The position numbers and the translations under genes were made by a program. The notes below the pieces were generated by a model. That model saw only the letters and a list, made by a program, of their open reading frames with translations, did not search any database and was not told where the DNA came from. A stretch of DNA of 49,911 nucleotides from a phage, in the sequence record PZ445414.1. One strand, given 5' to 3'. This document shows positions 32,194-44,046 of this stretch, piece after piece (within the stretch, counting starts at the first letter, position 1; each line of letters begins with the position of its first letter).

Positions 32194-33312
32194 ATGATTC
32201 AGAAAATGACAGATCAGCAGTTTAAAGACGCACGAGCGGAGGGTAAAACCTACAAGCAGATCGCGGAGGAGTTCGGCTTGAATGTTCGCACCGTTGAGCG
32301 CCGCGCCGCTCGCCTGGCTCGCGCAGGTGAAACCGAAATCAAAGGAGCACCAGGTTTTGCGGTTGTTCGTGAGTCAGTCCTTACCCGCGCAAACGGCGAA
32401 GAAGTGATGCGCTGGACTATCACCAACAAAGATAAAGAGCAGTTGGAAGCACTCATGCAAGCCGCGATGGATGCATTTGCTGAGGAAGTTCCGCGCCTTG
32501 AGCCTCAGCCGGAAAGCCGAAAGGACTACAGCGAAAGCCTGGCGCTATACCCTATCTTTGACATGCACATTGGCGCAATGGCTCACAAGCATGAATGTGG
32601 TGAGAATTGGGACACGGCAACAGCCGAGAAGGTCATGAATGACTTCTTTGATTATGCGGTTGAGTGTGCGCCAAATAGCGAGAAAGCCGTGCTCCTGATT
32701 GGTGGAGACATGCTTCACAGTGACGGCCTGGAGGCTGTAACACCTGCCAGCGGTCACGTTCTGGATCAGGATAGCCGCTACGCCAAACTTGTTTATGTCG
32801 CAATCCGAGCAACTCGCCGCGCTATCTCATTGATGTTGACCAAGCACAAAGAAGTTGAAATTCAGGTAATCGAGGGCAATCATGACCAATCAGGCATGAT
32901 CTGGCTACGCGCAGCAATGGCTGCGGCATACGAGGACGAGCCGCGCGTGATGGTTGATGTTTCACCTCGCGTAGTGCATCACACGCAGTACGGAAAAACA
33001 TTCCTCGCGTATCATCACGGTCACACCGTGCGCAAGCCGGAAACGTTATTGATGATGTGTGCGGCAGATTGGCGAGAGGATTTTGGCAAATCAAAATCAA
33101 TGTATGCTCATGTAGGCCATTGGCATCACCAGACCGTAACAGAAACCAGCCTGGGTATTGTTGAAGTTCACAGCACTATGGCGGCTAAAGATGCGTATGC
33201 GGCACGTGGCGGCTGGCGCTCTCGTCGTCGCGCTGCGGTTATAATCTACGACAAAGAGCACGGCGAGATCGGTCGATTCATGTTCTACCCTGAAATGATG
33301 GAGTCAAAATAA
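32194..33312 (+). CDS. metallophosphoesterase (calcineurin-like) with N-terminal HTH
   Basis: motifs DMH, GDMLHSD, GNHDQ, YHHGH, HVGHWHH; N-terminal YKQIAEEFGLNVRTVERR HTH-like segment. Confidence 0.6.
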   Translation: MIQKMTDQQFKDARAEGKTYKQIAEEFGLNVRTVERRAARLARAGETEIKGAPGFAVVRESVLTRANGEEVMRWTITNKDKEQLEALMQAAMDAFAEEVPRLEPQPESRKDYSESLALYPIFDMHIGAMAHKHECGENWDTATAEKVMNDFFDYAVECAPNSEKAVLLIGGDMLHSDGLEAVTPASGHVLDQDSRYAKLVYVAIRATRRAISLMLTKHKEVEIQVIEGNHDQSGMIWLRAAMAAAYEDEPRVMVDVSPRVVHHTQYGKTFLAYHHGHTVRKPETLLMMCAADWREDFGKSKSMYAHVGHWHHQTVTETSLGIVEVHSTMAAKDAYAARGGWRSRRRAAVIIYDKEHGEIGRFMFYPEMMESK

Positions 33313-33482
33313 TGAAGGTTAAATGCGTTGAGAATTCATCTAAAACACTGCCTTACTACGAGGGCTTTGTGTACGAGGCCGATCCATTACCTGGCGGGAT
33401 GTACAAGATTAAAGATGAATCAGGGCAGCATATTATTGCGCCGCTAAAAGGGCATTATCTGGAGTTTTTACAGATTGATTAA
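33312..33482 (+). CDS. hypothetical protein (56 aa)
   Basis: ATG overlaps upstream stop (TAATG); followed by intrinsic terminator. Confidence 0.35.
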   Translation: MKVKCVENSSKTLPYYEGFVYEADPLPGGMYKIKDESGQHIIAPLKGHYLEFLQID

Positions 33483-33506
33483 CATTTAATTTCATGAGCT
33501 TACAAA

Positions 33507-33534
33507 GGGCTGGCGTTTGCTAGCCCTTTTTTTA
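33507..33534 (+). terminator. intrinsic terminator before lysis cassette
   Basis: gggctgg cgtttg ctagccc ttttttt. Confidence 0.65.
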
Positions 33535-33609
33535 TTGTTTCGCTTTTGCTCATTGCTGGTTAACATACACTCACTTAATTATTGACATTTTGCACGAGGA
33601 GGTTAGATC

Positions 33610-33825
33610 ATGAGAGAATTTTTAAACGCAGCAACCACCAGCACCGGAGGCGCATCACTGACGGGCGCGGCGACGGGGCAAATTACCATTGCGGTTGCTG
33701 GTCTTATCCTAATGGCGGCTTTCGGCTTTTGGGGCGCGTATCTGCGCTGGAAGGATAGCAAGGCGCTGCGAGAGGCTTTGGATCGTGAAGATATCAAAGA
33801 GGCAATTCGAATCAGGGGGAAATAA
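33610..33825 (+). CDS. holin (pinholin-like)
   Basis: 71 aa; Gly/Ala/Ser/Thr-rich weakly hydrophobic TMD1 then hydrophobic TMD2, charged C-terminus; directly upstream of SAR-type endolysin; SD GAGGAGG. Confidence 0.65.
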
Positions 33826-33827
33826 TC

Positions 33828-34322
33828 ATGAGTTTACAGAGAAGCGCGGCATACGCTTTATTTGGCGCTGCGCTCTCGTTAACTTCTCCGCTCCTGGAGG
33901 AGATCGAGGGCATCCGGTACAAGCCTTATAAAGATATTGCCGGAATCTGGACAGTCTGCGCGGGTATTACCGGATCTGACGTTGTGCTTGGTAAGACGTA
34001 CACGCAGAGAGAATGTGACGCACTTCTTGCCAAGCATATCGGGATTGCAAAGGCAGAAGTCGATAAGCGCGTAAATGTTGAGATACCGGACACTATGCGT
34101 GCGGCAATGTACTCCTTTACGTACAACGCTGGTACTGGAGCGTTTCGCAAGTCAACCATGCTCAAGAAGATCAACAATGGCGATCTTTATGGGGCGTGCG
34201 ACGAGCTTTGGAAATGGACGTATTACTACAATCCAAAAACGGGAAAGCGCGAGAAGTCCAAAGGTTTAAAAAACCGTCGCGCGGTTGAGTATAAATATTG
34301 CACTAAGGATCTGAAAAAATGA
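33828..34322 (+). CDS. endolysin, lysozyme (GH24-like) with N-terminal SAR-like segment
   Basis: [26 protein letters not shown] and [13 protein letters not shown] closely parallel phage 21-type SAR lysozymes as recalled; N-terminal [18 protein letters not shown] weakly hydrophobic. Confidence 0.75.
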
Positions 34323-34714
34323 AACGATTAGCTTTGGCGGTACTGGTTGCCGCCTCTCTTTCTGGTTGTTCAGCGTCAAGCGCTCTGAGCGGTTTAATCG
34401 GCAGCAAGCCGGAAATCACAGCACAGGCCGGAGCCGAAAACGTAAAGCAAACAGTAGGCGTGACGGCAAAGAATGACGAGAGCAGCAAGCAGGAAAACAC
34501 GATCAAGGATTCGCAGGTTGGCAAGGTTGACTCCTCCAACAAAAAGAAGGTGAGCACTTCAAGCATCCAGGCTGAGACAATCACAGCCGACAAGATCGAG
34601 ATCAGAAACAGCGAGAGCGATTTGTATGTGATGTTCTTTGCGCTTGCTTGCTTATTTGTTGCTGGCTTTGCCGCTGGCGTTTTTTGGAAGGGCAGAAAAA
34701 ATAAAGGGGCATAA
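34319..34714 (+). CDS. unimolecular spanin (lipoprotein with C-terminal TMD)
   Basis: N-terminal lipobox LSGC, C-terminal TM helix [22 protein letters not shown]; position after endolysin, as for T1 gp11-type u-spanins. Confidence 0.7.
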
Positions 34715-34727
34715 TGCCCCTTTTTTC
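34706..34727. terminator. bidirectional terminator after spanin gene
   Basis: aaaggggc ataat gcccc tttttt. Confidence 0.7.
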
Positions 34728-34917
34728 ATTCCAGTAGTCTGACGTTGACTAATACAACTCCGTCCTCGTCGTGCAGGTTGTGCTCCTTTGCCGGATTAGC
34801 TCGCATATCGCTGTACAGGATCAGGAGCAGCGCCGCAATCATTTCGTCATGCGATACCGAATTTTTTGCGCAGTGCATCATAATCGCATCTATTAGATTT
34901 TGTGTTGAATAATTCAT
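34726..34917 (-). CDS. hypothetical protein (uncertain start)
   Basis: 63-aa ORF overlapping end of 34847..35239; real start may be internal. Confidence 0.25.
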   Translation of the reverse strand: MNYSTQNLIDAIMMHCAKNSVSHDEMIAALLLILYSDMRANPAKEHNLHDEDGVVLVNVRLLE

Positions 34918-35239
34918 CGTCGCTTAACTCGTCAAGGTGAAACAGATCGTAAATGTATTTATTGCTCTCACCCTCCAGGCTATACAGTTCAAACCCAAAC
35001 GGCCTCTTGTGCGAGCCGTGGCACGTCACTACGCCTTTATCTATCCCAAGATATCCCAATGTAGCCATTCGCGGGATAAACTCAAGAGAAACGCTTGAGG
35101 CGAATTTGCGAGGAGTCATATTGGCGGCTCTTGCGAGCCGCTCACATTCTTTGTGCTGAAAAACAAATCTGGCTAAGTGCTGACGGTTAAACCAATCGTA
35201 ACTTTCGCAAAACTTATACAGATCCAGCAGAAACATCAT
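34847..35239 (-). CDS. hypothetical protein
   Basis: 130-aa ORF; ATG shortly after stop of upstream P-loop gene. Confidence 0.45.
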   Translation of the reverse strand: MMFLLDLYKFCESYDWFNRQHLARFVFQHKECERLARAANMTPRKFASSVSLEFIPRMATLGYLGIDKGVVTCHGSHKRPFGFELYSLEGESNKYIYDLFHLDELSDDELFNTKSNRCDYDALRKKFGIA

Positions 35240-43841: not shown

Positions 43842-44046
43842 GATCGTAACATGGATTTTCGGAGCGGTGATTGCCGCTCTATCCGTCCTGCTGGTGCTCA
43901 TAATTTGGGCGGCGGTATACATGACAGCGAGCGACGATTACACCTGCGAGAAAACAGGCCGCCAAGTTCTTGTTATGATTCCGTCTGGTAAAGTCATGGT
44001 TCCTATCATGCAGGACGAAACTATTTGCAAGAGGGTTGAGAAATGA
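43834..44046 (+). CDS. small membrane protein
   Basis: 70 aa; N-terminal TM helix IFGAVIAALSVLLVLIIWAAV. Confidence 0.4.
   Translation: MDKIVTWIFGAVIAALSVLLVLIIWAAVYMTASDDYTCEKTGRQVLVMIPSGKVMVPIMQDETICKRVEK

Follow-up and report, generated by a model that had tools for sequence, protein, structure and literature searches.

The lysis cassette of Escherichia phage IsaakIselin: a T1-like module with a predicted pinholin, a probable SAR endolysin and a u-spanin

Introduction

How does a T1-like phage open its host from the inside, and what does each gene of its lysis cassette contribute? The question is raised by three consecutive genes at positions 33610-34714 of sequence record PZ445414.1, a stretch of phage DNA of 49,911 nucleotides (nt), which is called the window here. 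An earlier reading made from the letters alone (the original prediction) had taken the three genes for a pinholin, an endolysin of the signal-anchor-release (SAR) type, plus a unimolecular spanin (u-spanin). The same combination has been published for T1-like cassettes (PMC6139136, PMC4559738, PMC11447400, PMC13164509), and the cassettes of Sushi, TLS and KanT1 are described alike. The original prediction agrees with that description. Its least secure part is the pinholin label; the holin has no homology to S21, the holin of phage 21.

The arrangement is already known. The genes are annotated in GenBank, and publications have described the scheme from 2015-2018 at the latest. Beyond correct annotation, the significance of the locus is small. 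One residual point is that the label 'pinholin' is a prediction for T1-type holins, and this point bears on lysis timing in a large phage family. In this study, we established the identities of the three genes, their orthology to T1 gp13, gp12 and gp11 and to the phage 21 lysozyme R21, their sequence motifs, and the N-terminal architecture that is kept across the endolysin family. We conclude that the cassette is very probably the late lysis module of a T1-like phage, in which a pinholin, a SAR endolysin and a u-spanin would act in three steps.

Identity and layout of the cassette

Positions 33500-34800 of the window were 100% identical to Escherichia phage IsaakIselin (Bas10; MZ501077.1) in a megablast search. 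The window is as long as that record and rotated relative to it with an offset of 533, so that window position 33500 is record position 34033. IsaakIselin belongs to the Drexlerviridae, Tempevirinae, Henuseptimavirus, and is a member of the widely used BASEL collection (PMC8594841). In the record, bas10_0044, bas10_0045 and bas10_0046 are labelled 'holin', 'endolysin' and 'u-spanin', respectively, and these genes fit three open reading frames (ORFs) of the window exactly. All three are on the plus strand. The holin gene (33610..33825) encodes 71 amino acids (aa) and was assigned by phrog_2877, by identity to T1 and by the record annotation; its product is the orthologue of T1 gp13. The endolysin gene (33828..34322) encodes 164 aa; its product is a lysozyme of the GH24/T4 type, R21-like (SAR), and the orthologue of T1 gp12. 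The u-spanin gene (34319..34714) encodes 131 aa and is the orthologue of T1 gp11. The ORFs lie where the original prediction had placed them, the peptides that it quoted and the lipobox LSGC are present, and the family matches are far beyond chance.

In the T1 cassette gp13/gp12/gp11 (NC_005833, 42878-43982), the three genes recur in identical order and are of similar size, with 71/162/133 aa in T1 and 71/164/131 aa in IsaakIselin. Both phages share the synteny exonuclease-SH3-holin-endolysin-spanin-terminator. The common flanks are an exonuclease gene (phrog_704) and a DUF7244 ORF upstream, and a reverse-strand phrog_2794 gene and a helicase gene downstream. T1 is a member of the Tunavirinae, whereas IsaakIselin is assigned to Tempevirinae/Henuseptimavirus, and in T1 alone an HNH endonuclease gene separates the small ORF from that of the exonuclease.

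The spacing within the cassette is tight. A gap of 2 nt separates the holin stop codon from the ATG of the endolysin gene, whose own stop codon overlaps the spanin start codon (ATGA). A Shine-Dalgarno sequence is present ahead of all three ORFs. That of the holin gene, read from the sequence as GAGGAGG at 33596..33602 (plus strand), lies 7 nt 5' of the ATG. The cassette closes with the spanin gene, which ends within a terminator.

The endolysin and its N-terminal segment

The endolysin matched Pfam Phage_lysozyme PF00959 (E = 2e-37) and phrog_7 of the PHROG database (E = 2e-53), and was 64% identical to T1 gp12. A close parallel between its catalytic region and the phage 21 lysozyme had been proposed in the original prediction and was borne out by the searches. 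The closest solved structure by sequence was full-length R21 (3HDE, E = 9e-45), followed by DLP12 RrrD (4ZPU). BLASTP aligned the catalytic domain alone, with 50% identity to R21. In HMMER, the alignment ran from endolysin residues 2-158 against R21 residues 4-160 and included the SAR region, with a gap formed by a 6-residue deletion (R21 'TGPSGN') just ahead of the catalytic Glu and past the hydrophobic stretch. The AlphaFold2 (AF2) model had a predicted local distance difference test score (pLDDT) of 88, and Foldseek gave template modelling scores of 0.81-0.84 to 3HDE and 4ZPU. The catalytic triad E27-x8-D36-x5-T42 (33906..33953, plus strand) was read from the sequence; it aligns with E35/D44/T50 of R21, and the three residues are invariant across 52 homologues. 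R21 (3HDE/3HDF) and RrrD share with the IsaakIselin enzyme the GH24 fold, the E-x8-D-x5-T triad and a Cys-free N-terminal segment. The IsaakIselin endolysin differs from both in the length of its N-terminal segment, which has 6-8 residues fewer (Glu27 against Glu35), in a single Gly where they have GGG, and in a 6-residue insertion near residue 135.

The SAR-like N-terminal segment comprises residues 1-23 (33828..33896, plus strand), that is, MSLQR and 18 uncharged residues, and it aligns with the SAR domain of R21. A single Arg precedes the uncharged residues, and 53% of the stretch is G/A/S/T. At the charge density of this endolysin (30%), 18 consecutive uncharged residues have a probability of about 0.0015 by chance. 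The 106 distinct N-termini collected from the family, whose members are 53-91% identical overall, have 1-3 K/R, 14-21 uncharged residues, and the catalytic Glu at 24-28. The pattern is thus kept while the residues turn over, which argues for a targeting or anchor signature and not for a packed amphipathic helix. G13 is nearly invariant in the family and aligns with G15 of the Gly-Gly turn of R21; in the AF2 model, the N-terminal helix is broken at residues 11-13. The endolysin has Cys residues at 44, 63, 124, and 158 only. Because the N-terminal segment contains no Cys, as in 100 of the 106 family members, its control would be of the steric type known from R21, and disulfide caging of the P1 Lyz type was rejected for the same reason.

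Published experiments on related enzymes bear on the function of this segment. When the T1 endolysin was induced alone, E. coli was lysed within approximately 2 h, with an arabinose minimum inhibitory concentration (MIC) of 0.1%, whereas the cytoplasmic T7 endolysin alone caused no lysis (MIC >3.2%) (PMC10954549). For 57_3Lys, the endolysin of another Drexlerviridae phage, lysis was progressively blocked by sodium azide (bioRxiv 10.64898/2026.09.09.750462). This enzyme shares the short architecture of the IsaakIselin endolysin, with an N-terminal segment of approximately 20 residues and the triad at E26/D35/T41, and is described as a SAR endolysin of class II (bioRxiv 10.64898/2026.09.09.750462). 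The 'SAR endolysin' of KBNP1315 was also considered for comparison and was dropped; the phage is SP6-like and the enzyme SLT-type. The original prediction also held that the endolysin is exported independently of the holin and released when the holin triggers. This fits the R21 homology, the conserved N-terminus and the lysis that the T1 orthologue causes without a holin.

Several properties of the segment weigh against its being a SAR anchor. S21, P1 Lyz and T4 E served as comparator sequences, of which that of S21 was checked against PF04971 ('Bacteriophage P21 holin S'), with a score of 122 bits. The 17-mer of the IsaakIselin endolysin had a Kyte-Doolittle (KD) value of 1.48, a Hessa sum of +3.3 and a Wimley-White (WW) octanol value of -3.7. 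The corresponding values were 2.29, +0.15, and +0.3 for R21, and 2.24, -0.17, and -2.0 for P1 Lyz. Hence the segment is clearly weaker than both comparators on the KD and Hessa scales, and stronger than both on the WW scale. Within its own family it likewise ranks low (KD15 of 1.44 against a mean of 1.80), and 57_3Lys, which comes from the Braunvirinae, has a more hydrophobic N-terminal segment (KD15 of 2.06 against 1.44). The uncharged stretch is short, with 18 residues against 24 in R21 and, by inspection of the sequence, a similar number in P1 Lyz. The n-region has only one basic residue, as in T1 gp12. Finally, residues 15-17 are A-L-S (A-L-A in most homologues), which is a possible signal-peptidase site.

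This last feature raises the alternative that the N-terminus is a cleavable Sec signal. A cut after A15-L16-S17 would leave approximately 9 residues before the Glu, as in T4 lysozyme, and some means other than tethering to the membrane would restrain the cleaved endolysin. A short n-region, an h-region of 12 residues, the small residues at -3/-1, and an uncharged stretch shorter than that of validated SAR domains all suit such a signal, and SignalP 6 reportedly scores the equivalent segment of 57_3Lys as a signal peptide (bioRxiv 10.64898/2026.09.09.750462). However, the motif falls within the hydrophobic core, and no polar c-region accompanies it. The TSPLL that follows it is conserved and continues as a helix to Glu27 in the AF2 model, and a freely secreted active lysozyme would cause premature lysis. 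The homologous segment of R21 has A-I-A and yet reportedly stays uncleaved. Cleavage is therefore considered improbable, and the anchor of the IsaakIselin endolysin is presumed to be released in uncleaved form.

The second alternative is a canonical system, that is, a soluble cytoplasmic endolysin whose N-terminal helix is part of the fold, served by a holin that makes large holes. In the crystal of active R21, as well as in the AF2 model, the segment does pack on the globular body, and its hydropathy is marginal on two scales. Nevertheless, the N-terminal segment is 16 residues longer than the segment ahead of the Glu in T4 lysozyme (T4 E), and the family keeps its basic and uncharged N-terminal pattern despite sequence turnover. 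The comparison of T1 with T7 described above and the azide sensitivity of lysis by the Drexlerviridae homologue speak against a cytoplasmic enzyme as well. The original prediction had itself named a soluble N-terminus that needs a canonical holin as its counter-case; by analogy with the T1 endolysin, which is lytic alone, and with the azide-sensitive 57_3Lys, the IsaakIselin endolysin would behave otherwise. We regard the canonical system as very improbable, and a SAR endolysin as the preferred reading of bas10_0045.

The holin

The holin matched phrog_2877 over residues 1-71/71 (E = 2e-35) and was 59% identical to T1 gp13 in a gap-free alignment. All 55 holin homologues carry the precomputed label PF27028. 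The family is tiny: a profile search among 1.84 billion representative proteins, at E<=1e-10, yielded 8 clusters, and every named member that turned up belonged to a T1-like phage. The holin gene adjoins the gene of an R21-type endolysin and is thus placed as the partner of a SAR endolysin. A role in depolarising the membrane, by which the tethered endolysin is freed, is well supported by this context.

The original prediction described the holin as a protein with a Gly/Ala/Ser/Thr-rich first segment and a hydrophobic second transmembrane domain (TMD). The composition of the first segment and a strongly hydrophobic helix behind it were confirmed; the likeness to the phage 21 holin did not extend to homology when the two were aligned. 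The main transmembrane helix, residues 25-45 (33682..33744, plus strand), is robust, with KD values of 1.98-2.05, a WW value of -7.4, an AF2 pLDDT of 81-93, and the invariant residues F38, G39, W41, G42, and Y44. A basic tail follows (residues 46-71, with 9 K/R against 6 D/E), which places the C-terminus inside the cell. Segment 1, residues 4-23 (33619..33678, plus strand), is putatively either a SAR-like TMD1 or an N-out tail. It is 79% G/A/S/T and marginally hydrophobic, with a KD value of 0.51, a Hessa sum of +7.7 and a WW value of +4.8 kcal/mol. The family consensus is F.NAAT..TGG.S.TGAATGQ, in which N6, A7, T9, G13, G14, G19, A21, T22, G23, and Q24 are wholly or almost invariant. All members of the 8 clusters share the weak segment 1, and none has a clearer TMD1.

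Small residues recur at every fourth position on one helical face, namely A7, S11, A15, G19, and G23, and then G31, G39, and A43. The pattern resembles an extended glycine zipper that spans segment 1 and continues in the main TMD; several of its positions are family-invariant. A database protein of 141 aa (P0186) joins a 16-residue leader, residues 1-31 of a T1-like holin and, approximately, residues 69-162 of an endolysin of the T1 kind; a variant formed by deletion or an artefact of assembly is the probable explanation.

Does this protein work as a pinholin of the S21 kind? The IsaakIselin holin resembles the S21 68 pinholin (PF04971) in its length of 71 aa, its Gly/Ala/Ser/Thr-rich segment, the strong TMD close behind it, and its basic C-terminal tail, and both holins have an R21-type endolysin as partner. 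At the Center for Phage Technology the T1-like holin is placed in class II, with N-in/C-in topology (PMC4559738, PMC6139136), and the genome announcements of that center and the TLS paper give it two TMDs. When the T1 holin was produced alone, growth was inhibited and no marked lysis occurred (PMC10954549). By analogy, such an effect is compatible with small holes and is not diagnostic of them. In the searchable literature, no topology or hole-size experiment on T1-type holins was found. The name 'pinholin', with its S21-like topology and small holes, is thus the accepted standard prediction and the least secure part of our reading; the holes are presumably small, and segment 1 presumably starts in the membrane.

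Several findings count against this assignment. Segment 1 is less membrane-prone than TMD1 of S21 on all three scales. The deficit is slight on KD (0.51 against 0.64) and Hessa (+7.7 against +6.4), and much larger on WW, where S21 TMD1 has -2.9 kcal/mol and the holin family ranges from +3.5 to +6.8. Segment 1 also has none of the aromatic residues of S21 TMD1. Homology to S21 was absent in every comparison made: PF04971 gave no match at E<=1, hhalign gave a probability of 0.6%, and BLASTP returned no alignment. Since the holin stands outside the S21 family, any likeness to S21 would be convergent. A dual-start antiholin was not found either; after Met1 no further Met occurs before residue 35, and upstream there is no start codon in frame. 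A dual start is not universal among pinholins. The T1 record describes its holin as having a 'single transmembrane domain'. In the AF2 model, helices span residues 2-13 and 16-58 with no hairpin at 23/24, where confidence is low; with a pLDDT of 72 overall and approximately 54 over residues 1-20, the model is too poor to fix the topology, and the missing hairpin is a weak hint.

These points lead to the alternative that the holin has a single TMD with N-out/C-in topology, whose N-terminal 24 residues are periplasmic or interfacial and never span the membrane, and that it is not a class II holin of the S21 kind. Such a protein would still trigger a SAR endolysin by depolarisation, and its topology, regulation and possibly hole size would differ. 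Besides the low hydropathy of segment 1 across the family, the absence of S21 homology and of a dual-start motif, and the T1 GenBank note, two details favour it. The divergent member P0180 has Asp6 and a short segment of 16 residues before 'NE', and the AF2 model breaks at G13-G14 and continues as one helix over residues 16-58. On the other hand, segment 1 falls just below the validated TMD1 of S21 on the KD and Hessa scales, and it is like S21 in its length (approximately 20 residues), in its composition and in the very short stretch that joins it to the main TMD. The class II assignment by the Center for Phage Technology is at odds with a single TMD, and the AF2 confidence in the N-terminal region is too low to weigh much. 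We consider a single-TMD holin a plausible competitor, though a less than probable one, and retain the pinholin as the preferred prediction.

A broader view can be offered more tentatively still. The T1-type holins may be a structurally distinct kind of trigger for SAR endolysins, of independent origin from the S21 pinholins, and defined by a single stable TMD and a strictly conserved Gly/Ala/Thr-rich segment. Under that same tentative view, segment 1, with its small residues at every fourth position from A7 to G23, might work on the surface of the bilayer or beyond it, perhaps in oligomerisation or timing, and not as a releasable TMD1.

The u-spanin

The third protein had been predicted to be a u-spanin of the T1 gp11 type, and the searches leave this claim standing. 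It matched the Rz-like spanin family phrog_1804 over its full length (E = 6e-49) and T1 gp11 with 46% identity (E = 6e-32), and it has both a lipobox and a C-terminal TMD. Relatives were found by tblastn in 1151 phage records. T1 gp11 is the experimentally established u-spanin prototype and complements lambda RzRz1, and spanins of the T1gp11 family occur in pinholin/SAR-endolysin cassettes (PMC6139136). The lipoprotein signal peptide (34319..34369, plus strand) was read from the sequence; it ends in the lipobox LSGC with Cys17, which is identical to the wild-type lipobox of T1 gp11 (PMC6139136).

The position after the lipidated Cys decides the sorting of a lipoprotein by the Lol system, and the absence of Asp at +2 directs it to the outer membrane. 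Residue 18 of the IsaakIselin spanin is Ser, so that sorting to the outer membrane is predicted. The C-terminal transmembrane helix comprises residues 102-122 (34622..34684, plus strand; KD 2.35-2.46) and is followed by the basic tail WKGRKNKGA. The TMD sequences of the T1 and IsaakIselin spanins are unrelated in detail. Cys residues occur only at 17, which is lipidated, and at 111, within the TMD; there is none in the periplasmic part, unlike in two-component spanins (PMC6139136). Judged by its sequence, bas10_0046 has each of the u-spanin features that were checked.

Proposed course of lysis

The following course of events is proposed for the cassette. Host Sec would export the 164-aa lysozyme by means of its weakly hydrophobic N-terminal segment, and the enzyme would build up tethered on the periplasmic face of the inner membrane. 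There it would be inactive, because Glu27 is only 4 residues past the anchor. In the second step, a single strong TMD (residues 25-45) would let the 71-aa holin gather in the inner membrane, with the C-terminus inside. At a set time, holin lesions would collapse the membrane potential. Upon depolarisation, the N-terminal segment of the endolysin would leave the bilayer and refold on the catalytic domain as in R21, and the murein would then be degraded. In the third step, the 131-aa spanin, which would bridge the outer membrane by the lipid on Cys17 and the inner membrane by its C-terminal TMD, would be freed once the peptidoglycan meshwork is gone, and would fuse or disrupt the outer membrane. 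The holin-independent lysis, the azide-sensitive lysis and the complementation of lambda RzRz1 on which this scheme draws are published results on orthologues, and are applied to IsaakIselin by analogy.

Terminators, transcription and neighbouring genes

The cassette lies between two hairpins. A bidirectional intrinsic terminator marks its end (34703..34723, both strands; 9-bp stem with 5 G-C pairs; sequence AAAGGGGCATAATGCCCCTTTTTT). The spanin stop codon TAA sits within the loop of this hairpin. The terminator also serves the convergent minus-strand genes, and its T1 counterpart is annotated at 43966-43988. At the other end, between the SH3 gene and the cassette, there is a terminator-like intrinsic hairpin with a T-run (33504..33529, plus strand), in which TTTTTATTGTT comes after an 11-bp stem that includes 6 G-C pairs.

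A sigma-70-like match at 33582-33611, the sole such match in the spacer, was considered as the cassette promoter. It overlaps the ATG of the holin gene and therefore cannot yield holin mRNA, and it was rejected. With a strong hairpin upstream, the cassette may be transcribed by read-through, by antitermination or from a non-consensus promoter. An Rfam scan of 33200-35000 gave no match at the gathering score, and the weak matches fell on the terminator hairpins. Two minus-strand ORFs antisense to the cassette (34306-34593 and 33929-34177) had no PHROG match and were taken as mechanical ORFs.

Directly upstream of the cassette, a gene at 33312..33482 (plus strand) encodes a standalone SH3-like protein of 56 aa (DUF7244; PF23896, E = 6e-28; phrog_4788, E = 4e-19), which is a possible accessory of the lysis module. 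A standalone SH3 protein is a frequent neighbour of Drexlerviridae lysis modules (PMC13164509). The ATG of this ORF overlaps the stop codon of the upstream exonuclease gene (TAATG). The latter gene, bas10_0042 (32194-33312, plus strand; 372 aa), is recorded as 'hypothetical protein' and is under-annotated; its product is a DNA-repair exonuclease (phrog_704, E = 1e-147). The N-terminus of bas10_0042 has a helix-turn-helix (Sigma70_r4_2-like, E = 3e-6), and the protein also gives a faint metallophosphatase signal.

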